Source: an uncultured Pseudomonadales bacterium (GTDB taxonomy: Bacteria > Patescibacteriota > Microgenomatia > UBA1400 > PJMF01). Taken from it: 64,000 nucleotides of DNA. Positions 48,401 to 64,000 of this stretch are shown in pieces. Position 1 is the stretch's first letter, and each line of letters begins with the position of its first letter. Position numbers and translations under genes: made by a program. The notes beneath the pieces were generated by a model. That model was not told the DNA's origin. It made no database searches and was given only the letters and a program-made list of their open reading frames with translations. The stretch is from assembly GCA_964574595.1 (NCBI GenBank), contig CAZNOF010000006.1:21532-85531 (forward strand), written 5' to 3'.

Positions 48401-48459
48401 CATAAGAAACAAGAAAATCGCCCCAGAGGCGGTTTTTTTGTACCTCTGCCTAAGATTTT

Positions 48460-51018
48460 TTGTTTTATACTATAATCCAGATTATGCCATTAGAAATTTT
48501 TATTCCTGGTGCTTCTGAGCATCAAGCACCTGAATCGAAACCCCTAGCGAGTGGTCTCGTCATCAATGCTCGAGGCGAAACGCTTGATTCAACACAAAAA
48601 ACCCAATTATTTATTACAAATGAAAAAGGTACAATTAAAGAAGTTGCCCCACTCGGACAAGAAAGACCCACTATGAACGGCGAGTACTCTCCTACCTCTC
48701 ATATTCCACAAGATGAACCAGAAGACATGAGAAGAACACTTGTAGAAACAGAAGCGGTGAAAACAGGACGAGCCTATAAATCAGATACGATCCTCGAAGC
48801 GGTAGCGAACAATGAAATACCCAAACTCTCGCACGGGCTGTACGATTTGGTTTTTGAGTTGGGATCAACAAATATTGACTGGCGAAAAGATGTAGAACCC
48901 ATCTTAACTGCAGCAGGCATCAATACTCTCAATCCAGATATGGGCGCGAACTGGGATCCTAAGCGTGACACGCTAGCTGAAGCATGGGGTTTGGGAAACT
49001 CTGCCGAGCTGGCGATGTATATTGAAAATGCTGCTGACATTAAGGATGGAAGTTTAGGTTCTTTAGTAGAAATCGGTATGTCCGTCTACTCAGCGGTTAT
49101 TAGTGGGCAGCATGTGGATATTCACTTTGACGAACACTTTGAGGAAACCTTAGAAGACCCCGGCGCCATCGCACAATTTGAAGCGTTAAAGACACAACTA
49201 GCAGCAATTCAAAAAAAATACGGTCACTTAGTCTCGGTTGAGTACAATAGTACTCGTCAAAACTATGCTGAGAAAATTCAATTGGCCATGGAGAGACAAC
49301 GGAATCCTGAAACCGCCAACAAGCCAATTACCAAAGAAAAATTGCAAGAATTTGCCGAAAAAAGAAGACAGAGATTGGCAAAAAAGAAACGCAAAGTGGT
49401 TTACGGCGGATCTTCTGCGCCTTTCGATAAATCACTGCAACTCTCCTTTGACACTGAGCAAGACTTAATTCAACAAATTTTTGGTGGCGAAGCAGCTATG
49501 GATGTACTTAACAGAGAGCCACTCAAATCTGCCTGGGATCGTGCCTACGAAGAAGGTATTAGTAAAGATGAGCAGATCAAACGTATGAACTTCTTATTCC
49601 AAATGGAAGCTGGTCCCAAAAGCCAAGCCGACATTTTACTCTGGATCATTCAAGCTAGAGCCGAGTCGATGGCTGCCATAACGGAAACACCGTTCCTGCT
49701 CCTAAATGCTTTAGAAGAAGGGCAACAAGTAGGCGTCCTCTCTGAAGACTTAGATGCTGACTTTTATGTGCAACACCTGTTTGGCAGAAGAGCACCAGAT
49801 CTTGAAAAAACGACTGGACCATTGCCAATTTACGACCAGCTCCGAGATAAACGAGAGACAATTACCTTTAAATCCATCAAAAATGAACCTGAACTCAAAA
49901 AGACTCGGCTCTTCTCACGTGCTGATAATGTCCGTCGCACTCGAGCCATTTCCTCACAGCAGTTACTAGGTATCAATGAAAAGGCCAGAAAAATTGCGGG
50001 TGACGAGGAAATTGAGTTGTTTATCTTTAGTCGAGATTTGACTGATTTTGCACAGAAGTGCCAAATTATTGCCGACAATGAAACCTTTGAGGGTCGTGAA
50101 GTGTTCTACAACAACTTAAGTAAGTTTAACGATAACATGGAGGCCATGGTGGCTGAGCATGCTGGAGATAAAGAACATGCCGTAGAGATTGTTTGGAATG
50201 CGATCAAAGCTGCTGTAGAGCTCAACCCATTTGCGCCATCATTAGAGAAGCACTTGAATGAAGTCAAGGCCACTTGTGCCACTTTGAAAGAATTGGTTGC
50301 GGCTCATCCGGACGCTGATGGCAATCCATACTTAACTCCAGAAGAAATGAAGTTAATGGTTGATTATGTGGCTCCTCTCCACGACATCTTAAAACTCCTC
50401 GGTGCTCCAAATGTCCAAGCTATCCCTGACCATGAAGTCTTTGCTGGATACATCGTAAACACTTACTTTGAGAAACTTGGATTTACTCCACAAGAAGTAG
50501 CATTCATTGCCGGCGTGATTGGCAATCATGAGAACATCTTTAAAGAGAAAGAGCGTGATAAGTACTCTTCATCAGAGAAATCAGTGGACCGAGGAGTTGC
50601 TCTCTTCTTTATCGCAGATGGCTTAACTGGCGTTGTGTCTGAGGAAAATGGGGTCATAAAACTCGATCCAGCTCAACTTGATGAACGTTTCGGCAAGCTC
50701 TATGTCAATCACATGGATCCAGAGACTCGAAAAGTTGCGCTGCCACGACCAGAATGGGGCTTCTCAACCGTCAAAGATTATCTGGCTACGTTTGATACGC
50801 TGGAAGCAAAATACGGCTTCAAATTTGATCCAGGTGCTCGAAAGATGTTGATTGATTCTGCTGTTAAAGCAATTGATACCACGCTCGGGAACAATGGCAA
50901 ACGAAAAGAAGAGGCATCCAACAAAAAACCACTCATGACTGATCCGGAACTGATTAATTTGATGAAAACACGATCGGCACTCAAGAAGATTGGCCGCGAG
51001 CTAGCACCAGCAGCCTAG
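48460..51018 (+). CDS. large multidomain hypothetical protein with C-terminal HD-domain-like motifs (alternative start ATG 48484)
   Basis: 852 aa. C-terminal third contains H...PLHDILKLLG...FFIADG, resembling the H / HD / D signature of HD phosphohydrolases. N-terminal regions unassigned. Confidence 0.4.
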   Translation: MFYTIIQIMPLEIFIPGASEHQAPESKPLASGLVINARGETLDSTQKTQLFITNEKGTIKEVAPLGQERPTMNGEYSPTSHIPQDEPEDMRRTLVETEAVKTGRAYKSDTILEAVANNEIPKLSHGLYDLVFELGSTNIDWRKDVEPILTAAGINTLNPDMGANWDPKRDTLAEAWGLGNSAELAMYIENAADIKDGSLGSLVEIGMSVYSAVISGQHVDIHFDEHFEETLEDPGAIAQFEALKTQLAAIQKKYGHLVSVEYNSTRQNYAEKIQLAMERQRNPETANKPITKEKLQEFAEKRRQRLAKKKRKVVYGGSSAPFDKSLQLSFDTEQDLIQQIFGGEAAMDVLNREPLKSAWDRAYEEGISKDEQIKRMNFLFQMEAGPKSQADILLWIIQARAESMAAITETPFLLLNALEEGQQVGVLSEDLDADFYVQHLFGRRAPDLEKTTGPLPIYDQLRDKRETITFKSIKNEPELKKTRLFSRADNVRRTRAISSQQLLGINEKARKIAGDEEIELFIFSRDLTDFAQKCQIIADNETFEGREVFYNNLSKFNDNMEAMVAEHAGDKEHAVEIVWNAIKAAVELNPFAPSLEKHLNEVKATCATLKELVAAHPDADGNPYLTPEEMKLMVDYVAPLHDILKLLGAPNVQAIPDHEVFAGYIVNTYFEKLGFTPQEVAFIAGVIGNHENIFKEKERDKYSSSEKSVDRGVALFFIADGLTGVVSEENGVIKLDPAQLDERFGKLYVNHMDPETRKVALPRPEWGFSTVKDYLATFDTLEAKYGFKFDPGARKMLIDSAVKAIDTTLGNNGKRKEEASNKKPLMTDPELINLMKTRSALKKIGRELAPAA

Positions 51019-51914
51019 TTTTTACGAAGCTTATAAACGAGTTTTTGATGAACAGGAATAGCTTCAACTGAGAAGCCAAGCTGCTTAAAGCAAGCCATCA
51101 GTTCGGCGTACTGGGCCAAACAATATTCATACCAATTAGTCAATGATTTGGCTTGTTCAAAAACACTTCTGTAGTGAACGACCAGCAGGGTTCCTTCTGG
51201 TTTCATTAATGAAGTGATGTGTCTAGCCAGAAACATCAACTCTGGCGATTTGCCAGACATCAGTTCTTGGGTAGCTGTTTTAAATAGCTCAGCATCTCGA
51301 TATAACTCTTGAATGTGCTGGCCCGACTTTTCCGCCCAAGTATTTAACAAATAATCATCAAGAAAATGATTGGTCGTTACAAGATCGTATTGTGGGTCAT
51401 TTGGCAGAACGAGGAGTTCAGAAACCAGTTTTTTGACAGCGAATTGAGGGTGAAAAAAGCGTAAAACTGTCTCTAATTTCTCCAATGAGGCTAGATCCGT
51501 ATCCAACAACGCAACTTCCCCTGTAAAGTTATGACGAGCCAATGCAATCTCAACTTTGGGAGCCCAGCCAGGCAGCAGATCAATCACGTTCATTTCCGAA
51601 GTCAATTTCACTGATTTCAGTAATTCATACCAGAGGTCTGAAATGTGATGGAAGCCTTCTAAATAACGCATGAACTCAGCGGTTCTTCTGCCTACATCGT
51701 CATGTTGCCTGCCAATGAATTCTGTCTCCGAGTACAGCCCCTTCTCGGCATACTCGACCATAAACTGTAAGTCAAAAGCCACGTTTTCTTGCTCCAAAGG
51801 CGTCAACGTAGAACTCAGTTTTTGCAGGCGGTCTAAGTAAGAAGATATTTGAGAAGAGGTGGATGAGGTGCTCATGAGGAATTGCCGTATAATATCATCT
51901 GGAACACTCGCCAT
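51015..51914 (-). CDS. hypothetical protein with weak Rossmann/SAM-methyltransferase-like motifs
   Basis: VIDLLPGWAP (motif I-like), VALLDTD (motif II-like), DLVTTNHFLDDY (motif IV-like). Start uncertain because the annotated start overlaps the divergent gene. Confidence 0.35.
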   Translation of the reverse strand: MASVPDDIIRQFLMSTSSTSSQISSYLDRLQKLSSTLTPLEQENVAFDLQFMVEYAEKGLYSETEFIGRQHDDVGRRTAEFMRYLEGFHHISDLWYELLKSVKLTSEMNVIDLLPGWAPKVEIALARHNFTGEVALLDTDLASLEKLETVLRFFHPQFAVKKLVSELLVLPNDPQYDLVTTNHFLDDYLLNTWAEKSGQHIQELYRDAELFKTATQELMSGKSPELMFLARHITSLMKPEGTLLVVHYRSVFEQAKSLTNWYEYCLAQYAELMACFKQLGFSVEAIPVHQKLVYKLRKN

Positions 51915-53040
51915 GCAACTTGATCAATCCACCACTTCTGCCGAAGCAATTCAGTTGAGAAAAAAACTGACCAGAATTGCGCGTGGCTTACGACATACAA
52001 CACTGCCTGAAGTTCTTGACTATTCCCTGCCTCAATCCGTCTCATCAGATACGATTCGTTTTAAAGACACCTTCATCTCTCGAAAGCGGATTGTGCTTTT
52101 AACCGGAAGTTGTAGTGTTGCCAGTTGTACGATGTGTCATTTGCCCAATGAAGCACTTTGGAAAGATCGGCCACAGCCCACACAAAAAAACTTGCTGGAT
52201 CAGTTTTCGGCCGCGTTCGCAGAAGACAAGATCAATAATTACGACATGATCACGATTTATAATAACGGCAATTTTTTTTCCGATCGCGAAGTTCCACCTG
52301 AGGTGCGCCTCAAGATTGCTGATCAAATTAATACCGCTGGCTGCAAGTACTTGCTCGTCGAGTCTCTTCCCCAGTTCATCACCTCAACAGCACTTCAAGA
52401 AATGAGTACGGCACTTGGAAATACCAAGCTCGTCCTATCGATTGGTCTCCAATCTGCCAATGACTATGTGCGTGAAGTGGCGGTGAACTCAACTTGTTCA
52501 AAACAACAATTTGAACGAGTGGTCAAGGAAGCCACCGAACTTGGTCACGAGATAATGACCTTCTTAATGCTCAAACCACCTTTTTTAACGGAACAAGAAG
52601 GCATTGATGACATGATTCAAAGCTTAGAGTACCTGACGTCTTTAGGACTCACAGAAACTGCCATTTGCCCAACTCAAGTTTCTGACTTTACGATTGCAGA
52701 TGTCCTTTTCACTGAGAAATCATTTACTCCACCGTGGTTATGGTCGGCGATAGAAGTTTTAAAGATTGCTCAACAAAAAAACCTGACTTTGCCACGCTTT
52801 GCCACATCCGTCTTGAGCTCTTCACATCTTGAGAATTTAAAGTTGGCGTATAATTGTGATCAATGTTCTGATCGATTCATCCATCTTTTAGAAGAATACA
52901 ATAACTCAAGAAATATTGATGCTCTCGTCAATTTTTCATGTTCATGCAAAGAAGAATATGATCGGCAACTTGCCCAAGCAGTCACCTTAGAAAGCTTAGA
53001 ATCGCGCATTACGGCGTTCACTCAAGCCCATTTTGTCTAA
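51859..53040 (+). CDS. radical-SAM-like protein with non-canonical Cx4Cx2C cluster and C-terminal extra Cys motifs (start uncertain; Met at 51916 possible)
   Basis: LLTGSCSVASCTMCHLP (C-x4-C-x2-C). TIM-barrel-like length. C-terminal CDQC...SCSC. Confidence 0.4.
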   Translation: MDEVLMRNCRIISSGTLAMQLDQSTTSAEAIQLRKKLTRIARGLRHTTLPEVLDYSLPQSVSSDTIRFKDTFISRKRIVLLTGSCSVASCTMCHLPNEALWKDRPQPTQKNLLDQFSAAFAEDKINNYDMITIYNNGNFFSDREVPPEVRLKIADQINTAGCKYLLVESLPQFITSTALQEMSTALGNTKLVLSIGLQSANDYVREVAVNSTCSKQQFERVVKEATELGHEIMTFLMLKPPFLTEQEGIDDMIQSLEYLTSLGLTETAICPTQVSDFTIADVLFTEKSFTPPWLWSAIEVLKIAQQKNLTLPRFATSVLSSSHLENLKLAYNCDQCSDRFIHLLEEYNNSRNIDALVNFSCSCKEEYDRQLAQAVTLESLESRITAFTQAHFV

Positions 53041-53043
53041 TAT

Positions 53044-54006
53044 ATGAATATCTCCTCTCCCACTTTTCAAGCCCTTACTAATCCCGTGCTTTTGACAGAA
53101 CTGCAAAACTACCGAAAGAGGCGCGGCTTTGAGGCAGAGAAAGTTGTACAACAAAAACAAGAACTACTGGCAAAATACTGCACGGATTGGCAGATTGACA
53201 CCTTAATTGTGCCAGTTAGCGGCGGAGTTGACTCTGCGGTGGTGGCAGCCTTAACGGCGGTTGTAACACAGAAAAATCAAACGCTCAAAAAAGTGATCCT
53301 GCTTTTTATTCCTCAGTTCAATGAGGGCAGTTCGAACCAAGCCGATGCTCAAAAAAAAGTCGAACTTCTGGCAGACAAACTTCAAGTTGAGCTCATTACC
53401 TTTGATATTTCAAACTTGCACCAAACTGTGATCGAAGAACTCAATAAAAAATCTCTCAGCAGTGGCTGGCTAAAAGGCCAAGTGACGACCTATTTGAGAA
53501 CGCCCGTTTGGTATAGTTTAGCGGCTCAACTAGCCGAGGCAGGCCATCGGGCAATCGTCTCCGGCACTATTAATTTTGATGAAGGCAGCTATCTGGGCTA
53601 CTTCTCTAAAAGCTCTGACGCCATGACTGACATTCAGCTGATTTCCGATTTACATAAGTCGGAAGTCAAAAAAATTGCTGAGTACTTTCGGATTCCTGAA
53701 GAGATTAGAAACGCGATTCCCAACGGGGACATGTATGACAATAGAAATGACGAAGCTGTTTTTGGAACGAGTTATGATTTTGTGGAACTGTATAGTTGGT
53801 TTCTTCAGCTACCTGAAGCGGAGCAAGCACGGAAATTGAAAGGTTGGCCGGCGGCAGCTCAAAAAGAGTTCGAGCGGATGAGAGCAAATCTAGAACGACT
53901 TCATGAATATAATCGGCACAAATATACTGTCGCCCCACAAGGACTGCACTTCACGGTATTTGAGGCAACTATTCCCGGTGGCTGGACATTAGTAAAATAT
54001 GTTTGA
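53044..54006 (+). CDS. nadE: NadE-like PP-loop ATP pyrophosphatase (NH3-dependent NAD+ synthetase family)
   Basis: PP-loop VPVSGGVDSAVVAAL. C-terminal ISDLHKSEVKKIAEYFRIPEEIRNAIPNGDMYDNRNDEAVFGTSYDFVELY matches the NadE L.K.EV..LA..LG.P..I..K.PSA.L..Q.DE...G..Y..LD pattern. Confidence 0.6.
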   Translation: MNISSPTFQALTNPVLLTELQNYRKRRGFEAEKVVQQKQELLAKYCTDWQIDTLIVPVSGGVDSAVVAALTAVVTQKNQTLKKVILLFIPQFNEGSSNQADAQKKVELLADKLQVELITFDISNLHQTVIEELNKKSLSSGWLKGQVTTYLRTPVWYSLAAQLAEAGHRAIVSGTINFDEGSYLGYFSKSSDAMTDIQLISDLHKSEVKKIAEYFRIPEEIRNAIPNGDMYDNRNDEAVFGTSYDFVELYSWFLQLPEAEQARKLKGWPAAAQKEFERMRANLERLHEYNRHKYTVAPQGLHFTVFEATIPGGWTLVKYV

Positions 54007-55732
54007 CCATCGCCTCAATCCGTACTTCCAAAAATGGCTGGGTCTCAATCAGGATGAGCTTGATGCAGCTTTCAGTGCCTTGCCCGATATTGATCAGCTA
54101 AATCCAGAAAACAGATTTTGCTGGAAAGTCTTACGAGACACGCATTACGCCACGGTTTGTGAACAGCTTGACACGCAAGAACTCATTAAAGCAGGTTTTT
54201 TTGATGACACGATTAATTTTCAAGATACGGTCTTCTCACATCAAAAAGTTGCCCAAGTGGGAATTCCAACCCGGAAACTTGATACGTTATTAGGGAAAAG
54301 TTCAAATTCTGCAAAACCAAAAGTCGTTTTGTTAAGTACCGGCGCGTTTGCCCATGCGCACTTTGGTCATATTCATATGATGGAGCAAGCAAAAAAAGCA
54401 GTTGAACAATCTGGGAAAATTGTAGTCGGCGGATTCCTCTCTCCCTCTCACCAAGATTATATTTCTTATAAATTGGGCTCGATCGCACCTCTTTTTTCGA
54501 TTGAGGAAAGATTGGCTGCCTTACGATTATTGACCGATGAATCAGACTGGTTAGACGTGGCACTGACGGAATCCCTTTACCGTAAAACATCCGTCAACTT
54601 CACTGATATCATTGAAAGTTTGCAAATCTATCTTGGAGAACTCTATCCGACGGAATCTATTGAAGTCATCTATGTCTTTGGATCTGATAATGCGAAGTTC
54701 TGTTATGCATTCGCTCATCTTGGTAGCGCCATCTGCGTCCAAAGAGATACTTTTCATGAAGAGTGGCAAACGTATCAGCAGTTATTTAAAACCAACCACC
54801 GAATTTTATTTACCAATGCCATCATCCCGTACTCCACCTATGCATCCTCAAAAAATAGAACCGTCAAATCAGAAACTCCTGCCACGCCAAAGTTAGTGAA
54901 AAAGCATAAAACACTTTTACTTCGTGATGACCGAGACTACCTATTAGAAAAATGGCCGATTGGGAATACAACTCAGTTGAAAACTACCTTGGATTTATTT
55001 CACCAACGCCTAACTCAGCTCTTAGAAGAAGCATTGTCAAAAGACGAAACCTTCAGTTGGCAGGTGATCAAAAATCCCATGAATGAGCAGAAAAAAAAGT
55101 TAGCTGAGCTGATGAGAAATCAGCTTGTGATCAATTTAGATGAATGTACCCAAGGAAGTCACGCTTTGCGTGTGTCACGCTTGTTCTCTTTGTTTGACTC
55201 ACAAACAAAACCACTCAAACTCGTGGCAACTCCTGGCTCTGAATCAATCGAAAAACAGTTAGCGCAAATTCCGGCTGGTAAGTACCAGCTGACGGACGAT
55301 GACATTTCAACTGGTTTTACGACAACACAGGCTCGCAAACTTTTGGAAGCAACTGAGCATCATATTTCTGAAGTGACCAGTCTTTCAACAAACGATGCTT
55401 CGGTGCATGAAGTCTTAGATCTACGGGACTTTCTTGTGGGTGCTCCTGCCAGCGGGTTAGTGATTGAGCTGTCTGACAACAAGTACCGAGTTCCGTACTT
55501 GTGGCCGTATGTCAATATTTCCAGGCGTGGCTCACTACCATTTTTGGCGAGTTTTGAGTTCTCTAAACAGATATGGCAAGCAAATGCGGCGTTTTTTAAA
55601 GCCGTTGCACCTACAATGACACTAAGCGAAATAGATCCATACAGGGCTGAAATCTTTTACTTCTTTGGATTCACCGCACAGACAACAATCGTTGAGCTAT
55701 GTCTGAAACATGTTCAATTACTGAATCTTTAA
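53999..55732 (+). CDS. fusion protein: HxGH nucleotidyltransferase (NadD/NMNAT-like) domain + C-terminal type I phosphoribosyltransferase domain
   Basis: VVLLSTGAFAHAHFGHIHMM resembles the G.F.P.H.GH signature of NMN/NaMN adenylyltransferases (Ala for Pro). C-terminal KYQLTDDDISTGFTTTQA is a PRPP-binding loop of type I PRTases. 577 aa. 8-nt overlap with nadE. Confidence 0.5.
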   Translation: MFDHRLNPYFQKWLGLNQDELDAAFSALPDIDQLNPENRFCWKVLRDTHYATVCEQLDTQELIKAGFFDDTINFQDTVFSHQKVAQVGIPTRKLDTLLGKSSNSAKPKVVLLSTGAFAHAHFGHIHMMEQAKKAVEQSGKIVVGGFLSPSHQDYISYKLGSIAPLFSIEERLAALRLLTDESDWLDVALTESLYRKTSVNFTDIIESLQIYLGELYPTESIEVIYVFGSDNAKFCYAFAHLGSAICVQRDTFHEEWQTYQQLFKTNHRILFTNAIIPYSTYASSKNRTVKSETPATPKLVKKHKTLLLRDDRDYLLEKWPIGNTTQLKTTLDLFHQRLTQLLEEALSKDETFSWQVIKNPMNEQKKKLAELMRNQLVINLDECTQGSHALRVSRLFSLFDSQTKPLKLVATPGSESIEKQLAQIPAGKYQLTDDDISTGFTTTQARKLLEATEHHISEVTSLSTNDASVHEVLDLRDFLVGAPASGLVIELSDNKYRVPYLWPYVNISRRGSLPFLASFEFSKQIWQANAAFFKAVAPTMTLSEIDPYRAEIFYFFGFTAQTTIVELCLKHVQLLNL

Positions 55733-55743
55733 AGCTTCTGCAA

Positions 55744-56841
55744 TTACCCTGAGTGAGTGTACGTTTGTGGAGACTGATTCCACTTATAACTAGAACTGGA
55801 CGGAACACTTGGTGGCTGAGAATTGTATTTAGCCGCTTGAGCTTGAGCTTGTCTGGCTGCTTCTTCAGCTTCTTCTTTAATTCGTTGGCGATTTTTCTCT
55901 TCTCGATACTCTTTAAGCTGGGCGTCCATATCAATTGGCTTTTTCAAAACTTTCACTTTTGTAAACAACTCAATAACTTGACCATCCCTGTGCTCAACTT
56001 CAAACTCAAAGCGTGAGAAATCTCGTCCTGTCTCTGAGTCAATATCTCCTATATTTGCAAAAGAACCTGGGACAACTTGAAACTTTGACTTAGCCCCTGG
56101 GGCTTCTTCAGTCAGTAAGATTGGACGAATGAGGTCGTACTTATCTGGGTCTTTGCACGAGATAATCAGCTCTTTCTCACCATTGGCATTATTGATATAA
56201 AGGATGTCAACTTCATTGCTTGGATCATTAATATCACTCGGATTAAATCGCAAAGTCACGAGCTGGCCGTTACCACCCTTAACTAGACCCTCGATGCGGA
56301 CGATTGGTAACTTCTCGACTTGCTTATCGATGGCTTTCTTGACTTGTTCTCGTTTTGCCATCTCTCTGAATGAATCCATGGCGGAAACAAGCTTGGTATT
56401 TAAACCAATACTCGCTAGAGAAGACTTATCAATCTTGTTATCAATTTCATCAACCCGCAGCTCTAATAAGTCAGCCAAGTTTCCTAAGAATTCATCGCTT
56501 TCATCACCGTAGAACCATTCAAACTTGGTTCCTTGAAGGGCTGCCTTCCCCCCACCATCTCTTACCAGCTTAATAAAGCTTTCGATATTCGCTTTTTCTG
56601 CAGCACTTATTGTTTCCGTGTCAAAAATAAGTTCACCCGTACCAGATTTAAATGCTTTATCTCGTGTCACACCCTGATCATGTTCATCTGGATCAGAGAG
56701 TGGTTTTTCAGAAAAGACGAACTTCTGGTCACCAATAAATTTAGATAGAAAGCTACCCTCTGTAGATTCTTTCTCAGGTGGCAAATCCATTTCAGTTTTA
56801 AATTCTTTTGGATCAAAGCGTCTATTCGGATTTTCTGTCAT
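55744..56841 (-). CDS. hypothetical acidic protein, last gene of the ATP-grasp/AAA/VWA operon
   Basis: 365-aa ORF. C-terminal Q/A-rich tail. No motif. Confidence 0.4.
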   Translation of the reverse strand: MTENPNRRFDPKEFKTEMDLPPEKESTEGSFLSKFIGDQKFVFSEKPLSDPDEHDQGVTRDKAFKSGTGELIFDTETISAAEKANIESFIKLVRDGGGKAALQGTKFEWFYGDESDEFLGNLADLLELRVDEIDNKIDKSSLASIGLNTKLVSAMDSFREMAKREQVKKAIDKQVEKLPIVRIEGLVKGGNGQLVTLRFNPSDINDPSNEVDILYINNANGEKELIISCKDPDKYDLIRPILLTEEAPGAKSKFQVVPGSFANIGDIDSETGRDFSRFEFEVEHRDGQVIELFTKVKVLKKPIDMDAQLKEYREEKNRQRIKEEAEEAARQAQAQAAKYNSQPPSVPSSSSYKWNQSPQTYTHSG

Positions 56842-56869
56842 ACTTTCCTATCTCTTGTAATTTCGTAAT

Positions 56870-58498
56870 TTACCATTCTGGAACAACCTCATTGCCACTT
56901 ACTTTGGCGCTTGCACCTGGTCCCATGTAGTTGTGACCAGCTTGGTTCTTAGGTTTCAGCATATTCCACAGTGGCATACTATCGATGTAGTCGTAGACGA
57001 TTTTGTAATCACTTGGTGTCTTCTCATCACCAAAAACACCAGATAAATAGACTTCTCTCAAGGCTTCTCTTACTACATTTCCCCAGTTAATTTCAGCTGG
57101 TTCTTCGAGCCCACCGTTTGGAGTTTCTTCTGCCGTACGGTTAATACCAGCAATCATTGCATCAACTAAAGCAGAGACATCCCGCTGATCAAAGACATAC
57201 GAGCCACCGTTCTTCTTCGTTCGACCAATTAAACCTTTACTGACCATTTCTGAAAGAGAAACATGGAGCGTAGCGATACTTTTGCAGACAACATTTACTT
57301 TGTCAGCTGGCAAAGATTCAAAGTATGACTTTTGTGGAGTTTCCACGCCTCTTCTTCCCTTAATCAGTTTGCCATTCACACGTACATCTGGATCATCACC
57401 TACCATCTTAAATTTGAGGATATTTTCTACATACTCAGGAGTTACATTTGGTAAAACAACTGTTTCATTGCGACTTTGCCAGGCGTCTGAAAGATACGAA
57501 CGGCCGGAAACAGCTGGTGGGTTCTGAGCCATGACAATAAATGCGTCAGGACTTCTCACCACGGGTGGTCTAAACCCAGATACTGAGAAACTTACTGTAT
57601 TGACTTCTAGCAAAGGCAAAAGCACTTCCAACACACTTGTGTTATCTACAGTATTTGGCTCATCTAAAGCCAAGATTCCACCCCATTCGATAATCTCTAC
57701 AGCGGGAGAATCTTTCCATGTGTATTCAGATTTAATTAAGAGCTCCAAATTAATCTGACTCATCAGGGCTTTAGCAGCATCCAATACTTCTTCATCGTCA
57801 AGAGCTTTACTCTCTAAAAGCTCAATCAAGTTGTCGTAGACAATGATTAAGTCGCGGTCTGCACTTGTAAGTTTATCTTCTTTTCCGTCTGCAATCAGTT
57901 TTTTTCTCCATTCAACTTGTCTGGAGACACCAGCTGATTTCAGCAATCTCATCACTGTTGGCAGGATAATTTCTTTTTGATCAGAAACGCGACTACCAAT
58001 AATATTTGATTCTTTGGTGCCAGCTGAGAAACTTAAGCGATAGTATGGTTGACCAATGATCGCGGAAAACACCCAGGTCGCAAATGTTTTAGAAACAGCT
58101 GGAGGACCTTCCAAAGTCATCGGCTGGCGACGATTGTAACGGACACCAATTTCTCCTAGCACCCACAGTGTTGTTTCATCAAGCATGACCTGTTCTTGGA
58201 TATGCTCCCACTGCGTGATGCGCTCCTGCATTTTTTCATTGGCTGGCATCTCTGGGATACGGACGATCACTGGAGTATCAAACTCAGGGCAATACATACG
58301 GACAATTTGGTGTCGTTCATCATCATTCTTGGCATAAAATCTCAATGCACTACTATCATCACCTAAAACAGAGTGATACTCACTCCAGTTGATTTTTTGA
58401 TACTGCTCACGAGCTGCTTCACGGCTACGTTCACGTTGGAGTTCAATTGCTGTTTTGCCAGCTTCTGGATTCTTGCTAGTTGGATTCTGCTCGTGCAT
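56870..58498 (-). CDS. AAA+ ATPase of the MoxR / AAA_5 (dynein-related) class with degenerate Walker A
   Basis: GPPAVSKT (P-loop with Ser in place of the second Gly). Walker B ILALDEP. Sensor-1-like MAQNP. 542 aa with long N-terminal extension. Confidence 0.55.
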   Translation of the reverse strand: MHEQNPTSKNPEAGKTAIELQRERSREAAREQYQKINWSEYHSVLGDDSSALRFYAKNDDERHQIVRMYCPEFDTPVIVRIPEMPANEKMQERITQWEHIQEQVMLDETTLWVLGEIGVRYNRRQPMTLEGPPAVSKTFATWVFSAIIGQPYYRLSFSAGTKESNIIGSRVSDQKEIILPTVMRLLKSAGVSRQVEWRKKLIADGKEDKLTSADRDLIIVYDNLIELLESKALDDEEVLDAAKALMSQINLELLIKSEYTWKDSPAVEIIEWGGILALDEPNTVDNTSVLEVLLPLLEVNTVSFSVSGFRPPVVRSPDAFIVMAQNPPAVSGRSYLSDAWQSRNETVVLPNVTPEYVENILKFKMVGDDPDVRVNGKLIKGRRGVETPQKSYFESLPADKVNVVCKSIATLHVSLSEMVSKGLIGRTKKNGGSYVFDQRDVSALVDAMIAGINRTAEETPNGGLEEPAEINWGNVVREALREVYLSGVFGDEKTPSDYKIVYDYIDSMPLWNMLKPKNQAGHNYMGPGASAKVSGNEVVPEW

Positions 58499-58506
58499 TT
58501 AGTCCT

Positions 58507-58929
58507 TTAATTCATTCTGCATGTGTAATCAAACACATGTTGTAAATTTGGTGATAAATCAGACACATTTGTGTTATTTAAGAGTACAAAAAGGCGACCT
58601 TTGTTATCACTATGACCTGCCTGGGAAGCTGTTTGTTGCCAACCCATTAAATCGGTGTACATACTTAATAACTGATCTTGATCCTTACAAGTAATCAGGA
58701 CGACCACGCCTACCTTGAAAAAGGTGTTGACGATGTCGAACAGTTTGGCGGCCCCAATTTTCTCAACTTGATCTCCAGAAAGAGTTTGACACATCTGGCC
58801 TTTACTCTTAATGATGTTCACAATTTCCATGCCATTTGTGTCTTTGTCAGTCACAAAAAGGGAGACAAAATGAGAACCTTCTGGGGTTGGGGTAAGACGT
58901 TTAGTGATGAACTCTTCAACGGTATTCAT
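58507..58929 (-). CDS. hypothetical small protein (140 aa)
   Basis: Intact ORF between the AAA_5 and VWA genes. Alpha/beta-like composition. No motif. Confidence 0.4.
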   Translation of the reverse strand: MNTVEEFITKRLTPTPEGSHFVSLFVTDKDTNGMEIVNIIKSKGQMCQTLSGDQVEKIGAAKLFDIVNTFFKVGVVVLITCKDQDQLLSMYTDLMGWQQTASQAGHSDNKGRLFVLLNNTNVSDLSPNLQHVFDYTCRMN

Positions 58930-58962
58930 AGGTAGCTTTCACGGTATTGTACTGCACCTTCT

Positions 58963-61764
58963 TTATTTTTTAAACTCATTTGGGTTACTAATAATGTATT
59001 GAAAAATGATTGGTAATACAATCGTTAACTCTGCTGTATCTGAGAATGAGTTACTTATACCTTCAAATTTCACCTTGCCAACTTTAGCCGTTAGTCCCTC
59101 ACGAGTATAGTAATTGTTCAGCTCTTGAGTGATCTCAGCGCGCAATCCGTCTGGTAACAGAGGAAAGACTTCATTGACAAATTCTGTATTCTGACCGATA
59201 CCAAACCCTAACAGGGCCAAATCTATATTATTATTTGTGGCATCAGACTGCACTTGTTTAATGACCTCTTTGAGCAAATCACTTGGTGCGAGCGGGATAT
59301 TTGGAATGCTATCAGTTGGTTGACCATCTGTTAAGACAATTAAGAAATCTCGCTTCTTACCGCTTCTGGCTGTCTCTTCATTTCTTGTTGCTAATTCTTT
59401 GAACGTGGATAACATGGCACTGGAGGTTGGTGTGCCATTTCTTGGTACCATTAAGAGACCACCAATATTCCTCTTCTGCTCTTCACTCAACTCCTCATCT
59501 GTGTCTTCCGTTTCTGCATAGGATTTAAACACTTTCATAGTCGTGCCATCACTAAACTCCGTAAATCCCTCCACCGCGAACTCAATTCCCAACGCGGTAA
59601 ATACTGTAGATAAAATGGTTACCATCTTGAACGCTTCGCGAATCTTATCGTCCATAGAACCAGATAAGTCGACTAAAATAGTAAATCGATAATTTTTCTT
59701 ATTTGGCTTCTCCTCATATGCTAAAACATCTCGGCCACCCTCACCTCGTTTGCGATCGATATCTCGGTCAATATCTAACTCACCTTCATCTTCAGAATAG
59801 CGAGTTCTCGGATGATTCTTGGGTCTGAAAATTGGCGAAAACTCATCAACTAGTGTTTCAATTGCTAACTTAATCTCTGGCAATCTGCTTACTGTATCAA
59901 ATACCTCCATGGTATCTTCAACTTCCGACATAAATTGATCATTCGCTCTCTGAATTTGATCCAAAATATCTTGGGGAACTGGAGGTAATTCTCTTGGCGA
60001 GGGGGATGGCTTTTTTTGCTCAGGAATTGGCTTTCTCGTGGCGGATTGTTGATTCTCTTCTCCTGAATCACTGGCCTCTTCACTTTCTTCACCTTCTTTT
60101 CCATTTTCACTCTCACTTGATTCAGATTCACCACTCTCTTGTCCTGGCTGGCCGGCCTCACCGGACTCACCTTCACCCGCTTCGCCTTCACCGGACTCAC
60201 CCTCCCCACTTTCACCCTCTGAACTCTCACCGCTGTCATCACCTGATTCAGATTTCTCACCTTTTTGCTGCTGTTTCTGCTTCTCTGAAACCTTACTCGG
60301 TCGGCTGACGCCTTCTTTATCAGATTTGCCTTCTAATTTTTCATTGACTTCATCTTCAACTTCGCCAAGTTCTTGCTGAGCCTTATCCTTCATTCCTTGC
60401 TTGGTATCTTCTTTGACTTTATCGAACTGTTCTTTAATTTTTTCTTTGGACTCTTCGCTGACTTTATCCCATGGAATTTCAGGTTTCCCGCCTTGAGAAC
60501 TACTTTCTCCACTTTGGGATTGTTCGCCAGATTGCCCACTTGCTGAACCTGATTGAGAACTTGGTTGAGAAGAGCTTGAAGAGCTTTGTTGACCTGATTC
60601 TTGTCCTGCCTGACTGCCTTGACCTGAATCAGAACCCTCCTGAGCTTCCTGGCTTTCACCAGACCCGCCAGATTCTTCACCTGATTCTCCTGAGCCGGCA
60701 CCAGATTGTTGACCCTGTTGACCAGGTTGACCCTGCTGGCCAGGTTGGCTCTGTTGCTGTCCTTGCTGCTGTTGTTCTTCTTCTTTACGTTGTTCGTCGA
60801 TGAGTTCTGCCAACTCTTTTTGGACTTCTGGAGGCAAAGAGTCAAAATCGATGATGACGAATTGACCACCATCTTTCCCTTCAAATTGCCCACCCTCGAT
60901 CAGTTGATCAATAAACTCTTTCAAGGATTGATCATCAACAGATTTTTCAACTAATTCTTTGTAAATATTCCAAATGTCACGGTAAACAATCGCGCGAGCC
61001 TTTGCTTGCTCTTGAATTTGCTCTTCCTTGGCATACATGTCTGGAACGGCATCCCAAAAAGCTTCCATCAGCGGGGCAATTTTTTGAAATGCTGCCTCTA
61101 CATCTGGATCGATACTTTTAATGAGTGCGGAAAACTCATCCATTTTAGTTTGGTCAATTTCGGTGTATGGATCAACTCCATAGATCGGGGTTTTTTGGTC
61201 TACGTTGAGGGTTCCAGCCACTTGCCTGCCGTAAAAATACTGACGCATCACGCCACCTAAGATCATGTGTTTTGGAATGTAGCCAAGTTTTTTCTCAACT
61301 TGTTGATTGATGGTGATATCTAAGCCGCCACCTTTTGCGACATCGACATCCAGATGAGATTTAATCAGCTCCTTGCCTCGGCGGTGAACTCGGTCAGCGG
61401 CATTTTCAATTCCACAGTCTTCGGCAAAGTTAAAACCTATGGCAAATCCTAATTGTGACCACTCGTCTTTGGTAAAGTGTTTCACACGACTCATCCAAAC
61501 ATGAAGTGCTTCATGCAAAGCAACACCCACACAATACTCACGAGATTTCCCGAGTAAGTCATTCTCATCCATCACAATATAATTTTCTTGAAAGTTCCAG
61601 TACCAACCTTGACCTTTTTTCCAAATAACAGGAATGTCTTTGCCCGGATTCGCAAATTTCACGATTTCAGCACACTGACGTCGCGTTTCTTCTCGATAAA
61701 CGACTTCGGATCTGCCAGTGTCTGCCTCGTGTGAAATCATAGATAAATCAGCATTATACTTCAA
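58963..61764 (-). CDS. metallopeptidase-like (HExxH) N-terminal domain + long acidic/Q/G/S-rich disordered linker + C-terminal von Willebrand factor A domain (DUF2201-like architecture)
   Basis: VGVALHEALHVWMS (HExxH). About 250 aa of QQG / SGE / EGES repeats. C-terminal MIDAS motif ILVDLSGSMDD (DxSxS). 933 aa. Confidence 0.6.
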   Translation of the reverse strand: MKYNADLSMISHEADTGRSEVVYREETRRQCAEIVKFANPGKDIPVIWKKGQGWYWNFQENYIVMDENDLLGKSREYCVGVALHEALHVWMSRVKHFTKDEWSQLGFAIGFNFAEDCGIENAADRVHRRGKELIKSHLDVDVAKGGGLDITINQQVEKKLGYIPKHMILGGVMRQYFYGRQVAGTLNVDQKTPIYGVDPYTEIDQTKMDEFSALIKSIDPDVEAAFQKIAPLMEAFWDAVPDMYAKEEQIQEQAKARAIVYRDIWNIYKELVEKSVDDQSLKEFIDQLIEGGQFEGKDGGQFVIIDFDSLPPEVQKELAELIDEQRKEEEQQQQGQQQSQPGQQGQPGQQGQQSGAGSGESGEESGGSGESQEAQEGSDSGQGSQAGQESGQQSSSSSSQPSSQSGSASGQSGEQSQSGESSSQGGKPEIPWDKVSEESKEKIKEQFDKVKEDTKQGMKDKAQQELGEVEDEVNEKLEGKSDKEGVSRPSKVSEKQKQQQKGEKSESGDDSGESSEGESGEGESGEGEAGEGESGEAGQPGQESGESESSESENGKEGEESEEASDSGEENQQSATRKPIPEQKKPSPSPRELPPVPQDILDQIQRANDQFMSEVEDTMEVFDTVSRLPEIKLAIETLVDEFSPIFRPKNHPRTRYSEDEGELDIDRDIDRKRGEGGRDVLAYEEKPNKKNYRFTILVDLSGSMDDKIREAFKMVTILSTVFTALGIEFAVEGFTEFSDGTTMKVFKSYAETEDTDEELSEEQKRNIGGLLMVPRNGTPTSSAMLSTFKELATRNEETARSGKKRDFLIVLTDGQPTDSIPNIPLAPSDLLKEVIKQVQSDATNNNIDLALLGFGIGQNTEFVNEVFPLLPDGLRAEITQELNNYYTREGLTAKVGKVKFEGISNSFSDTAELTIVLPIIFQYIISNPNEFKK

Positions 61765-62557
61765 ATAATCGCTCGAAAGAGTTGGTAATTATGTCTAAAA
61801 CTGGCTTGTGGCTTCTGCCTTTTTGGGCAAGATATTCATAATGTACCTCTGCCAAATGGCGAACTTCTTCGATCACGTATTCGTGGCACGTTTCATCCTT
61901 CGCAAACATCGTAAATGACACGTACTTCAATCCTGGAAATGTCAGCAGTACTTTTTTAGCAATTTTTTTGAGTTGACGAGAGGCTTGTCCAGTCACATCC
62001 ATATACGCAAAAGAATTTGTTTGAAAATCAACTTTTTTTCCTGCCTCGACAAAACTGATCACATTCTCGTGGGTCCGAACTTTTTCGAGCACTTGAATGA
62101 AGCCTGTGTCACTCAAGAAGACTTGATACTCGTTGCCCTGAAGTTGCTTTTCTATCAGCACGTTTTGTTCGACTTTGCTCAAGGTCTCAAATGCTTCAAT
62201 TAACTGTTTTAAGGAATAAATAGTCGTTAGCTCATCACCTTTGGCATTCGCATTTTCTAATTTCAGTGAAATTGGGAAGAGTATTTTTTGAGCGAAAGCC
62301 ACAGCTCTAGATAAATCTTGGGATGAGAAAACTGCCGACTGGGGTATACACAGTTTAGCGTCCTGCAAGACTTTTTGCGTAAAGTATCGATTGCCCAAGA
62401 TCAGTCCTATGTTATAGGGTACCATCGGCAAATACTCGCCAATCACAAAGCGCTGTTTGCCATTTTTCGTGAAGACTTGAATATCAGTGCCAACAACTTC
62501 TTCTACTTGGAAATGATTTTTGAGTGCGTAATCAAGAATTTGTTGATGCATTTTCAT
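61754..62557 (-). CDS. ATP-grasp-fold protein, paralogue of the upstream ligase, possibly degenerate
   Basis: Aligns by eye with the 333-aa ATP-grasp protein (FPISLKLENANAKG vs YPVVVKPVNDGQG; LIEKQLQGNEYQVFL vs LLEKHIFGEEYRVLI). Lacks the terminal E-x-N...PG Mg-binding motif. Confidence 0.45.
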   Translation of the reverse strand: MKMHQQILDYALKNHFQVEEVVGTDIQVFTKNGKQRFVIGEYLPMVPYNIGLILGNRYFTQKVLQDAKLCIPQSAVFSSQDLSRAVAFAQKILFPISLKLENANAKGDELTTIYSLKQLIEAFETLSKVEQNVLIEKQLQGNEYQVFLSDTGFIQVLEKVRTHENVISFVEAGKKVDFQTNSFAYMDVTGQASRQLKKIAKKVLLTFPGLKYVSFTMFAKDETCHEYVIEEVRHLAEVHYEYLAQKGRSHKPVLDIITNSFERLFEV

Positions 62558-63555
62558 ACGTTAAAACTCACTTCCACCAGCGGTTTGGCAACGTCATGAG
62601 ACTGACCTTTTCCTGGGACAGTATGCAGTGATAAACCTGGGTAGGCATTGAGCTCGCAGATTATCCATTCCTGTTTTGTAAGTGGTTTACTAATATCCTG
62701 ACAGATCAAGTCTAAACCCACATATGCCAATCCGCCCACCGCATCTAAAACGCGACTTGCCAACTTTTTGACACTTGGATGAGCTCGATTTGTGATATCT
62801 TCACAACCGCCACCTTTTGAGACATTGGTATTTGGCCGAAGCTGCACAACAGCACCTTGTGCTGGAACAGATTGAAGATTTTGCTGATTTTTCGCTAAGA
62901 AAGTACTCACCACTTCATCCATTTTAATTTCACACAAGCAAGTGATTCTGGGATTCATTCGTCGAAAGTTTTCTGCTTCAATCAACTGTTTAATTGAGTG
63001 CTTGCCATCACCAAGGACTCGTGCTGGAGTTCGGTGGACTGCCGCAAAATAGCCAGTCTTGGTAATCAAGACTCGATACTCTTCACCAAAGATATGCTTT
63101 TCAAGTAAGAAGACTGAGGAACTATGATTTTCCTTCGCGTAACGATCAATGCAGGTACTCAGTTCCGTTGGTGATTCAATAAGTGAATACACGAAGTTTC
63201 CTTGGCCATCATTAACTGGCTTAACCACTACGGGGTAAGCTACTTCATCGGCAAACTTGAGTGCCTCCCTTTTTTGATAAATACTAAACACTTTGCCTGG
63301 TGCCACATTGATCTTGTTCATTTCCAGGACTTTTTTGGTATAGAACTTATCGCTAGCAATCCAGCCGGAGGTGAAAGAAGAACAGGAAGAACTGATATCA
63401 AACAGCAGTTCTTTATGACCATTAAGAGACGCGACAGTAATTGGCGTGTCATCGATAAACCGTAGCCGAGCTCCATTTTTTTCGGCAGCAACTAAAAAAA
63501 GATTGGTATTGTAGTGAATGTCTTTTCTTTTCATCAAGTTTAAATCTGGGCGCAA
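62554..63555 (-). CDS. ATP-grasp ligase (RimK / cyanophycin-synthetase-like peptide ligase family)
   Basis: YPVVVKPVNDGQGNFV (ATP-binding lysine loop), EKHIFGEEYRVLI, C-terminal WIICELNAYPGL (E-x-N Mg site). 333 aa. Confidence 0.6.
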   Translation of the reverse strand: MRPDLNLMKRKDIHYNTNLFLVAAEKNGARLRFIDDTPITVASLNGHKELLFDISSSCSSFTSGWIASDKFYTKKVLEMNKINVAPGKVFSIYQKREALKFADEVAYPVVVKPVNDGQGNFVYSLIESPTELSTCIDRYAKENHSSSVFLLEKHIFGEEYRVLITKTGYFAAVHRTPARVLGDGKHSIKQLIEAENFRRMNPRITCLCEIKMDEVVSTFLAKNQQNLQSVPAQGAVVQLRPNTNVSKGGGCEDITNRAHPSVKKLASRVLDAVGGLAYVGLDLICQDISKPLTKQEWIICELNAYPGLSLHTVPGKGQSHDVAKPLVEVSFNV

Positions 63556-63597: not shown

Positions 63598-64000
63598 ATG
63601 CACATTTACCTTGTCCGACACACAAAGTATCACAATCCGGAAAATGTCTTTCCCTTTCATTTGCCGGTCAATTTATCAGTGGAAGGACGCGAGCATGCCA
63701 AACGAATCGCAGCTTGGTTCAAGGACAAAAAACTTGGTCAAATTCCAATTTATTCCAGTCCAATTGTCCGTTGTGTCCAAACCTCGGAAATTATTGCCGC
63801 TCAAACAGATTCCTTTGTTACTGCTGATGACAGACTCGTAGAAACATTTAGTCCTGGAATTCAGGGCACTCACAAACCAGAAAAAGATGAGTGGAAGATT
63901 GAAGATGAGGATCCAACTCGTGAGTCAATTGAGTCTATCCGCCAACGAGCCAGTTCCATATTTGAAGAAAAACTCAACCACAATCACAACTGTATTTTAG
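63598..64000 (+). CDS. histidine phosphatase family protein (SixA/PGAM-like), 5' partial in window; not in supplied ORF track
   Basis: Hand translation from ATG 63598: MHIYLVRHTKYHNPENVF...GREHAKRIAAWF...IPIYSSPIVRCVQTSEIIA, matching the LVRHG / YSSPL.RA.QTA signature. Open to the window end. Confidence 0.55.
   Translation, partial: MHIYLVRHTKYHNPENVFPFHLPVNLSVEGREHAKRIAAWFKDKKLGQIPIYSSPIVRCVQTSEIIAAQTDSFVTADDRLVETFSPGIQGTHKPEKDEWKIEDEDPTRESIESIRQRASSIFEEKLNHNHNCIL

Follow-up and report, generated by a model that had tools for sequence, protein, structure and literature searches.

A stretch of 64,000 nucleotides (nt) from an uncultured bacterium (GenBank assembly GCA_964574595.1, contig CAZNOF010000006.1, positions 21,532 to 85,531 of the forward strand; the whole stretch is called here the window) carries on its minus strand, from 63555 down to 55744, six tightly packed genes. 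In the order of transcription these encode two ATP-grasp proteins, a protein of 933 amino acids (aa) in which a zincin-like and a VWA domain are joined by a long acidic spacer, a 140-aa protein, an AAA_5 ATPase of the MoxR/midasin type, and a 365-aa protein with a conserved C-terminal tail ending in Ser-Gly. The cluster is a real, conserved and extremely rare system. Its components are tentatively fitted into a scheme, held at a probability of about 0.4 and inferred in all its steps, in which a MoxR/midasin-type motor, its adaptor and the ligases would act on the Ser-Gly tail of a client, the 365-aa protein, encoded in the same operon.

Gene order and conservation of the cluster

The six minus-strand open reading frames (ORFs; 62554-63555, 61754-62557, 58963-61764, 58507-58929, 56870-58498 and 55744-56841) all exist as delimited in an earlier annotation of this DNA made from the letters alone (hereafter the sequence-only reading), and successive genes are spaced by -4, -11, +33, +8 and +28 nt. 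Overlaps or gaps of 30 nt or less, as described there, are found at four junctions, the remaining gap being 33 nt. Consensus scans revealed no excess of promoters or terminators inside the six-gene operon, the count lying within the range obtained with shuffled sequences. The co-directional arrangement is confirmed. At the upstream edge, a divergent plus-strand gene starting at 63598 leaves 42-63 nt before the ATP-grasp 1 gene, and the operon therefore starts at ATP-grasp 1. At the downstream edge, 11 nt separate the stop codons of the 365-aa gene and of a gene converging on it. The guanine plus cytosine (GC) content of the six genes (0.40-0.43) is that of the window, with no composition anomaly, and the window is ordinary bacterial chromosome, hosting genes for PNPase, DnaK, FtsH, IF-2, NusA, SufB/S, TrpRS and MutY. 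Only tRNA, and no regulatory RNA, was returned by an Rfam search of the region.

The cluster was compared with loci found in two metagenome-assembled genomes (MAGs), L001 (= L007) and L008, both carrying the full cluster; in a Logan contig, L003, where the cluster is present from ATP-grasp 1 onward; and in the ENA and JGI contigs L004, L005 and L006, in which the VWA gene is cut by the contig end. For two further JGI contigs the core gene order was taken from gene tables, with no DNA. The succession of the VWA gene, a gene of about 145 aa, the AAA gene and a gene of about 360 aa is kept in six related loci, at 30-50% protein identity; since the same order recurs in all six at this degree of divergence, the arrangement is not due to chance. 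The ATP-grasp pair is found upstream of the VWA gene in all four loci in which upstream DNA is visible, the window included, and the adjacency of ligase and AAA/VWA genes is thus not peculiar to this genome; had it been, the sequence-only reading would, by its own criterion, have been refuted. The six genes, which the sequence-only reading had treated as the unit, are indeed packed and conserved in order, but five neighbours at 48460-55732 also travel with the system, having homologues beside it in other loci, and the true cluster reaches to about 48460. These neighbours had been missed, as had the radical SAM (S-adenosylmethionine) genes of the relatives.

The latter genes vary among loci. 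In the three related loci with visible upstream DNA, the stretch before the VWA gene is made up by ATP-grasp 1, ATP-grasp 2 and then a 375-aa radical SAM gene. L001 and L008 have an additional SPASM-type radical SAM gene ahead, the best matches of which are peptide maturases (families WgkB, nif11-class, mycofactocin, PqqE and AlbA), and in L004 the gene immediately after that of the tail protein encodes a B12-binding radical SAM protein. Neither the 375-aa nor the SPASM gene is present in the window.

The AAA family counts seven proteins in a database of 5.8 billion sequences, and a metagenome scan yielded no locus beyond those already found. The system as such corresponds to no Pfam, NCBIfam, PADLOC or PHROGs family, and to no description in the literature searched. 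A phage origin was rejected, as blastn and tblastn comparisons of the region, the AAA protein and the zincin-like domain to 50,697 phage records retrieved nothing, and IMG/VR gave no match either. Similarly rejected were a plasmid origin, no AAA match being found among plasmids, and a genomic island at the nearby tRNA-Met, where there is neither an att-like repeat nor a GC anomaly.

The 365-aa tail protein

The 365-aa protein (55744..56841, minus strand) consists of a folded core (aa ~30-340), which closes with a long charged helix, and of a disordered but conserved C-terminal tail (aa 339-365; 55747..55827, minus strand) modelled with a predicted local distance difference test (pLDDT) score <50. 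The consensus of the tail is Y.(P).PPSVPS...[RK][WY]...T[YW].[RS]SG-COOH, and the protein encoded in the window terminates in ...WNQSPQTYTHSG. A [ST]-Gly terminus is found in 22 of the 25 family members, the other three ending in Ser or Ser-Arg. Tail residues Y339, P344 and S364 are conserved in at least 90% of the sequences, against a mean column identity of 29%. The composition of the tail is unusual too: Asp and Glu account for 0.9% of the last 22 residues and for 18.2% of the remaining protein, Lys for 0.5% and 7.6%, respectively. As a consequence of the near absence of Asp and Glu, the terminal alpha-carboxylate is practically the sole carboxylate of the tail.

The core is less informative. 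Four positions are invariant in the 22 full-length members, none suggestive of catalysis, and neither a known fold nor a conserved Cys/His metal site could be detected. The family is small, an exhaustive HMMER search finding about 22 clusters among 1.84 billion cluster representatives. In one member of the family, P0036 (922 aa), AAA and tail protein are naturally fused into a single chain: residues 36-465 correspond to the former (E 2e-43) and residues 619-922 to the tail-protein profile (hhalign probability 99%, E 2.9e-18), the tail still being found at the extreme C-terminus. Operon position, fusion to the AAA protein and lack of enzymatic features point to the tail protein as a target, and the 365-aa protein is probably a dedicated client of the AAA/VWA machine, on whose terminal carboxylate the ligase, the MIDAS (metal-binding) site of the VWA domain, or both would act. 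In the sequence-only reading this protein and the 140-aa protein were two acidic unknowns. Acidic they are (pI 5.0 for the product of 55744-56841, 5.5 for that of 58507-58929), and Pfam assigns neither to a family. The 365-aa protein is however more than an acidic unknown, as the [ST]-Gly-COOH tail and the AAA fusion make it the centrepiece of the cluster.

The ATP-grasp pair

ATP-grasp 1 (62554..63555, minus strand; true start probably the ATG at 63534) is a RimK/ATP-grasp protein according to Pfam, and is intact and of the cyanophycin-synthetase G-domain/GshAB type. The best NCBIfam match is cyanophycin synthetase (1.5e-67, 228 bits), which covers aa 60-331 and, on the model side, aa 204-471, that is, the whole G domain; GshAB (2.2e-42) and N-acetylglutaminylglutamine synthetase (3.2e-32) follow. 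The PDB match is CphA1 (7lgm, 7.5e-36), and identity to plasmid cphA genes is 30-37%. All the expected active-site elements (ATP-binding Lys, Gly-rich loop, Mg-binding Asp, E301-x-N) are kept and, judged by family, ATP-grasp 1 is predicted to be an intact peptide-carboxylate:amine ligase.

ATP-grasp 2 (61754..62557, minus strand) matches Dala_Dala_lig_C (27.5 bits) and ATP-grasp in Pfam, and cyanophycin synthetase in NCBIfam (2.4e-10). In all four orthologues the Mg-binding Asp is changed to Thr or Arg, the Asn of the E-x-N motif to Arg, Phe or Tyr, and there is neither a Gly-rich loop nor the insert of about 50 aa. The protein is a distant, degenerate paralogue from the same clade and probably a non-catalytic partner. 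The proposal that one member of the pair is intact and the other a non-catalytic protein devoid of E-x-N holds at the level of sequence, except that in the window copy of ATP-grasp 2 only the Asn of the motif is lost, the Glu being retained.

Neither protein is a housekeeping D-Ala-D-Ala ligase or RimK, all equivalog scores being far below the cut-offs. With the Ddl models 28-49 bits are reached, where the cut-offs are 243-246, and the Mg ligands are gone from ATP-grasp 2; for rimK_fam the score is 52 bits and the cut-off 143, and Pfam and NCBIfam reveal no ribosomal protein gene beside the operon. Membership of ATP-grasp 1 in the CphA1 family was likewise rejected (228 bits against a cut-off of 850, over the G-domain region only), and no Mur-ligase gene was found in the cluster by Pfam and NCBIfam searches. 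CphA1 (G domain), GshAB and the tail ligases of the RimK/TTL type add an amine to a C-terminal alpha-carboxylate. ATP-grasp 1 aligns over the full G domain and has intact catalytic residues; unlike CphA1, it stands alone, with no N or M (Mur-ligase) domain, is paired with an inactive paralogue, and scores far below every equivalog cut-off.

Maturation of graspetides or microviridins, to which the pair had been compared, is unlikely. The short gaps between the operon genes show no small precursor ORF; the tail, the one conserved candidate for a substrate peptide, contains almost no Asp, Glu (0.9% together) or Lys (0.5%) through which side chains could be macrocyclised; and no graspetide ATP-grasp family is among the NCBIfam matches listed. 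A short precursor upstream of the operon is excluded by the 42-63 nt left before the divergent gene.

The arrangement is different in L008. There, the closest ATP-grasp 1 orthologue resides in an operon with the NMNAT-like, NadE and RaSEA-like genes described below, and a more divergent ATP-grasp 1 copy, with altered Mg ligands, adjoins ATP-grasp 2. This may either link both modules or warn of a small-molecule substrate for ATP-grasp 1.

The AAA_5 ATPase and the 140-aa protein

The AAA protein (56870..58498, minus strand) is an AAA_5 ATPase of the MoxR/midasin type (Pfam PF07728, 38.2 bits, cut-off 22), in which about 90 aa are inserted between Walker A and Walker B and extra domains flank the ATPase module on the N- and C-terminal sides. 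Invariant residues are G131, K137, T138, D279 and E280 (Walker B), N326 (sensor 1) and R343. In searches of PDB with the AAA profile, midasin is the sole match below 1e-3 (single-domain E values of 2e-08 to 3e-08), the only other relatives, CbbQ (0.013) and a MoxR protein (0.046), being weaker; the matches to PHROGs are all weak, and include the phage CobS family phrog_249.

The Walker A motif is GPPAVSKT in the window, a Ser replacing the second Gly of the canonical GxxxxGK[ST], and the Lys-Thr pair is retained. The motif had been spotted and called degenerate. Yet G[PM]PAV[ST]KT is found in all seven AAA homologues (GMPAVSKT in P0002 and P0003), the fusion protein P0036 featuring GPSAISKS. 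Such constancy marks the Ser-for-Gly change as a selected feature of the family and not as a lesion or a sign of decay, the ability to hydrolyse ATP being a prediction. At the C-terminus of the AAA protein (56870-56890, minus strand) a P-[DE]-[WF] motif is conserved, followed by about 70 further residues in the distant homologues P0006 and P0007; in the fusion P0036 a YDW motif is found ahead of the linker. The C-terminal P-[DE]-[WF] may be a docking motif.

The 140-aa gene (58507..58929, minus strand) lies between the VWA and the AAA genes in all six related loci examined; homologues were identified in L001, L003, L004 and L008, and genes matched in size in two more contigs. The protein shows an alternating strand/helix pattern and belongs to no family: there is no Pfam match and no relative outside this type of cluster, PDB searches with the profile hit designed alpha/beta proteins only (0.009-0.07), and hhalign comparisons to the AAA and the VWA proteins gave no match. 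The AlphaFold2 model obtained from the single sequence is unusable (pLDDT 41).

The 933-aa protein, a probable adaptor

The 933-aa protein encoded at 58963-61764 (minus strand) is made up by three parts. The N-terminal domain (aa 1-320; 60805..61764, minus strand) is a divergent, zincin-like HExxH...E domain, featuring HEALH at aa 84-88; residues H84, E85, H88, E115, D116 and C117 are invariant. This is the best-conserved stretch of the cluster, with 64-67% identity to L001 and L003, and 44% to L008. Profile matches are all sub-threshold (Peptidase_M1 at 0.014-0.042 over the motif region in two of four members, SprT-like at 0.11), and the label of metallopeptidase is a putative one, taken from the motif. 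No match to PDB, phage, DUF2201, FxsB or mod_HExxH entries was found. The HExxH domain reported by the sequence-only reading is therefore there, but not its likeness to DUF2201 (PF13203 DUF2201_N plus PF09967), for which no profile match was obtained at E values up to 0.01 with the full protein and up to 1 with four N-terminal domains. Homology searches with the zincin-like domain retrieved only P0018, a 97% identical fragment from a JGI metagenome contig of 1773 nt; at this identity, the same organism or a very close relative has been sampled independently.

The spacer (aa 321-640; 59845..60804, minus strand) is an acidic, low-complexity Q/S/G/E region. Its composition is Q 28%, S 27%, G 20% and E 12% at aa 321-424, and E 21%, S 14% and G 12% at aa 496-640. 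The two segments are separated by a K/E-rich helical island (aa 425-495; PWDKVS.E.K.KIK...ELGEVEDEVN) kept in four loci. A low-complexity spacer of about 250 aa had already been described; as delimited here it is longer, and interrupted by the island. Repeats with a 15-nt period are found in its coding DNA at 60153-60221. Two ORFs located in other frames inside the spacer, 60390-60893 (167 aa) and 59889-60260 (123 aa), both on the minus strand, are almost certainly spurious, produced by the repeats and the purine-rich composition of the coding sequence.

The C-terminal part (aa 641-933; 58963..59844, minus strand) contains a VWA domain (Pfam, aa 696-861; 4.7e-07, 30.6 bits, cut-off 23.8). The metal ion-dependent adhesion site (MIDAS) is complete, D699-L-S-G-S703 (DxSxS), T780 and D813 being invariant in four loci, and the protein closes with a conserved NPxEF; no C-terminal effector domain is present. 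The best PDB matches of the VWA profile are NorD (6.3e-05), the MIDAS domain of midasin (1.7e-04) and CobT (2e-03), all adaptors of AAA_5 motors. The pairing of a MoxR-type AAA_5 ATPase with a MIDAS-bearing VWA partner, already recognized by the sequence-only reading, is borne out by these data and by the AAA_5 score.

Proposed mechanism

The scheme is built on gene order and its conservation, motif states, family relationships, tail conservation and composition and the AAA-client fusion, which are observations. By analogy with NorQ/NorD and CbbQ/CbbO, the AAA_5 ATPase would form a ring, and the 933-aa adaptor would dock onto it through the VWA domain, the MIDAS metal site engaging a carboxylate on the client. 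In NorQ/NorD, six copies of the MoxR protein assemble into a ring whose pore is plugged by a finger of the VWA domain, the C-terminus of the adaptor contacts the ring, and surface carboxylates on the target are needed for its activation (PMC9976466, PMC13036017); on this analogy, AAA protein and adaptor may make up a carboxylate-binding remodelling complex. The client would offer a flexible, Pro/Ser-rich tail ending in Ser-Gly-COOH. ATP-grasp 1 would most likely activate the terminal Gly and ligate to it at least one amino acid or other amine, because the closest ligase families phosphorylate a C-terminal alpha-carboxylate and add an amine, and the tail has one such group. ATP-grasp 2 would be a non-catalytic, substrate-holding scaffold for ATP-grasp 1. 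The MIDAS/AAA machine would engage the tail, modified or not, and the zincin-like domain of the adaptor would trim or release it. In the relatives, the SPASM-type, the second, or the B12 radical SAM enzyme may modify the tail further. The end product would be either a matured protein or a released modified peptide.

Several observations weigh against the scheme. The zincin call rests on the invariant HExxH...E and on sub-threshold profile matches. The window is devoid of both radical SAM genes of the relatives, which are either dispensable or located elsewhere in the genome. The tail might serve solely for docking, as a ligand of the MIDAS for instance, without ever undergoing ligation, and ATP-grasp 1 could act on a small molecule, its closest L008 orthologue residing in the NMNAT-like/NadE/RaSEA operon. 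The 140-aa protein and the extra AAA domains find no explanation in the scheme, and the loci are only about eight, all from uncultured organisms.

A bolder version, to which little probability is assigned, regards the 365-aa protein as a macromolecular tag or primer, and the cluster as a third, ATP-grasp-based tagging route beside ubiquitin-type E1 and Pup/PafA. The ligase would turn the terminal Gly into an acyl phosphate, helped by the inactive paralogue, mirroring PafA/Dop of the Pup system; the activated Gly would be joined to amines of other molecules or become the start of a polymer; and a split midasin-like AAA/MIDAS machine with its own peptidase would read and remove the product. If this were true, the cluster would provide a prokaryotic model for the way midasin-type MIDAS domains engage their ligands.

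MoxR/VWA pairs are widespread, but clients are known for only a handful of them, such as Rubisco, nitric oxide reductase and cobaltochelatase. Here client and machine apparently share an operon, and one homologue has the client fused to the motor, which makes the action of MIDAS and ring directly testable. The same holds for the question of whether, beyond RimK and TTL, protein C-termini are modified by ATP-grasp ligases. The cluster also adds two protein families with no detectable sequence or structural relatives, and a conserved atypical AAA+ Walker A motif. The reach of these considerations is limited by the extreme rarity of the system and its confinement to uncultured bacteria.

Alternative explanations

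The tail can also be viewed as the core peptide (last 15-25 residues) of a precursor with a giant leader, in a pathway like those of the ribosomally synthesized and post-translationally modified peptides (RiPPs), in which radical SAM enzymes would cross-link the core, the ATP-grasp enzyme would extend or cap it, and the zincin would set it free as a small peptide with bioactivity or as a cofactor derived from the protein; the AAA/VWA pair would do no more than present or unfold the precursor. The match of the L001 and L008 SPASM genes to peptide-maturase families, the two conserved aromatic positions of the tail ([WY]...T[YW]), the presence of a zincin-like domain and the precedent of FxSxx-COOH-type systems coupled to MoxR-vWA (PMC7159879) are all in keeping with this view. 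It is nonetheless unlikely: a folded leader of about 340 aa, conserved as well as the core, would be unprecedented, the window does without the radical SAM genes of the relatives, genes for transport or immunity were not detected next to the cluster, and the AAA fusion suits a stable partner better than a consumable precursor. Less probable again is a conflict system, directed against phages or hosts, of the MoxR-vWA 'ternary' kind, in which AAA and VWA proteins would sense the invader and the nucleotide-directed neighbours (the HD/deoxyribosyltransferase-like protein, the NMNAT-phosphoribosyltransferase-like fusion, NadE and the radical SAM protein) would be effectors or signal generators. 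A peptidase is borne by the vWA protein in some ternary systems as it is here (PMC7159879), enzymes related to nucleotides or nicotinamide adenine dinucleotide are conserved beside the cluster, and its extreme rarity also speaks for such a system. No core protein, however, has a PADLOC match, and neither protein lacking a Pfam family can be recognized as a VMAP/iSTAND third component, in a Pfam copy unconfirmed as holding VMAP models. Composition is not anomalous, the adjacent tRNA-Met is free of att-like repeats, there are no phage, plasmid or IMG/VR copies, and a stable gene order over diverged relatives of apparently one lineage looks vertical rather than mobile.

A machine for chelation or cofactor insertion, similar to CobST/CobN or NorQD, would have the AAA/VWA pair insert a metal or cofactor into the tail protein or another target, the cofactor being built by the enzymes of the ATP-grasp, radical SAM, NadE-like and NMNAT-like types. 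In CobT and BchD the VWA domain comes after an acidic linker, a feature also found in the 933-aa protein, whose VWA domain is closest to NorD and CobT; the AAA protein weakly matches the phage CobS family phrog_249, and several cofactor-type enzymes adjoin the operon. But no large subunit like CobN or BchH was found, NCBIfam and Pfam assign no cluster protein to a CobS, CobT or Bch family, the core of the tail protein has no conserved Cys/His metal site, and the NadE, NMNAT and RaSEA genes are found in the window and L008 only, which makes this a doubtful candidate. Finally, it is very improbable that the ATP-grasp pair is a separate dipeptide synthetase, like those for glutathione or cyanophycin, lying next to the AAA/VWA genes by coincidence. 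The closest ATP-grasp 1 orthologue of L008 does belong to a different operon, as this would predict; yet the pair is upstream of the VWA gene, with frames overlapping or abutting, in the four loci in which this can be seen, and L008 itself retains a pair there.

Comparison with described systems

The closest described concept is the coupling of MoxR-vWA proteins to a peptide-processing module in which a zincin and radical SAM-SPASM proteins accompany a precursor whose C-terminal peptide, FxSxx-COOH for example, is conserved (PMC7159879, section 24; Kaur, Burroughs, Iyer and Aravind, eLife 2020). Shared with it are the MoxR AAA and vWA proteins, a putative zincin-like domain, the conserved C-terminal peptide and, in the relatives, radical SAM/SPASM genes. 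In contrast to the systems described there, the present cluster has no VMAP, iSTAND or FtsH third component, and its vWA protein has no effector domains. The putative zincin makes up the N-terminal part of the vWA protein, ahead of a long acidic spacer, and the place of a small, fast-evolving precursor is taken by a folded protein of 40 kDa that is conserved. Further differences are the added pair of ATP-grasp proteins related to cyanophycin synthetase and, in the AAA protein, the atypical P-loop and the large extra domains.

With NorQ/NorD, CbbQ/CbbO and CobS/CobT, pairs that each remodel one dedicated target, the cluster has in common an AAA_5 motor with an adjacent MIDAS VWA adaptor, a probable dedicated client next door and, by expectation, recognition of a carboxylate by the MIDAS. 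It differs from these pairs because a zincin-like domain and a Q/S/G/E spacer of 320 aa are built into the adaptor, ligase genes are part of the operon, and the client is not a metalloenzyme but a new protein with a modified or modifiable tail. Midasin (Rea1), with six AAA_5 modules, an Asp/Glu-rich linker and a C-terminal MIDAS, resembles the system in the AAA profile and in the acidic linker followed by a MIDAS domain. Here, however, the components are split over two genes, each chain has a single AAA module, the host is prokaryotic, and no ligand with a ubiquitin-like (UBL) domain is seen. The likeness to midasin may only reflect common MoxR ancestry (PMC3495828). A MoxR-vWA pair of jumbo phages, in which the vWA protein has an N-terminal metallopeptidase (Iyer et al., Viruses 2021, PMC7824862), displays the same architecture of AAA_5 and peptidase-vWA proteins; the pair described here is in contrast chromosomal, accompanied by ligases and a client, and shows no sequence similarity to phage records or IMG/VR.

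Neighbouring genes

The gene converging on the operon (53999..55732, plus strand) encodes a 577-aa NMNAT-like nucleotidyltransferase fusion (Pfam CTP_transf_like 1.3e-08, NCBIfam NMNAT 8.3e-07). It features an HxGH motif and a C-terminal domain with no Pfam match, in which Y.L.DDDI..G.T is conserved in L008; the motif resembles the phosphoribosyl pyrophosphate (PRPP) loop of type I phosphoribosyltransferases and may hint at such a domain. The L008 orthologue of the fusion adjoins the orthologue of ATP-grasp 1. A NadE-type PP-loop amidotransferase with an NAD synthase domain (53044..54006, plus strand; Pfam NAD_synthase 1.9e-28, TIGR00552 97 bits, cut-off 63.65) and a RaSEA-like radical SAM protein (51859..53040, plus strand; TIGR01210 2.2e-59, 201 bits against a cut-off of 212) precede it, and both have L008 orthologues. 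The RaSEA-like protein is a bacterial homologue of the archaeal archaeosine radical SAM protein; its true start is probably near 52096, where the L008 tblastn match begins. RaSEA-like, NadE and NMNAT-like genes form a single gene string, found again in L008 with an ATP-grasp gene alongside.

On the opposite strand follows a Rossmann, methyltransferase-like protein (51015..51914, minus strand) with GW.PK ... NH.LDD motifs and a weak match to Methyltransf_23 (0.0015). In L001, L003, L004 and L008 a methyltransferase-like gene of about 230 aa is found directly after the tail-protein gene, on the opposite strand; the ORF in the window has an N-terminal extension of about 70 aa, which is probably spurious. 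The same four loci host an orphan family of about 240 aa (13481-14212, minus strand, in L001), absent from the window. The last neighbour is an 852-aa protein (48460..51018, plus strand) with homologues in L001 and L003 and a C-terminal set of His and Asp residues of the HD type; H598, H641-D642, H658-E659, H690-E691 and D736 are invariant, and weak matches to Nuc_deoxyri_tr2 (1.3e-04) and Cas3 HD (1.2e-03) were obtained. Its gene directly follows the tRNA-Met (48332-48401). Profile searches found no PDB match for the 852-aa, ~230-aa and ~240-aa families.

Other features of the window

The related MAGs carry the label 'uncultured Pseudomonadales'. The window encodes an IF-2 of 481 aa (20028-21473, minus strand), a separate 342-aa gene product for a Pol I-type 5'-3' exonuclease (33967-34995, minus strand) and a DnaK (27233-29170, minus strand) 56% identical to that of E. 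coli. A short IF-2, a separate exonuclease and a divergent DnaK suggest a reduced-genome uncultured lineage outside the Gammaproteobacteria. The divergent gene that flanks the operon (63598-64000, plus strand), whose product begins with MHIYLVRHT... and leaves the window, resembles members of the histidine phosphatase/phosphoglycerate mutase superfamily.

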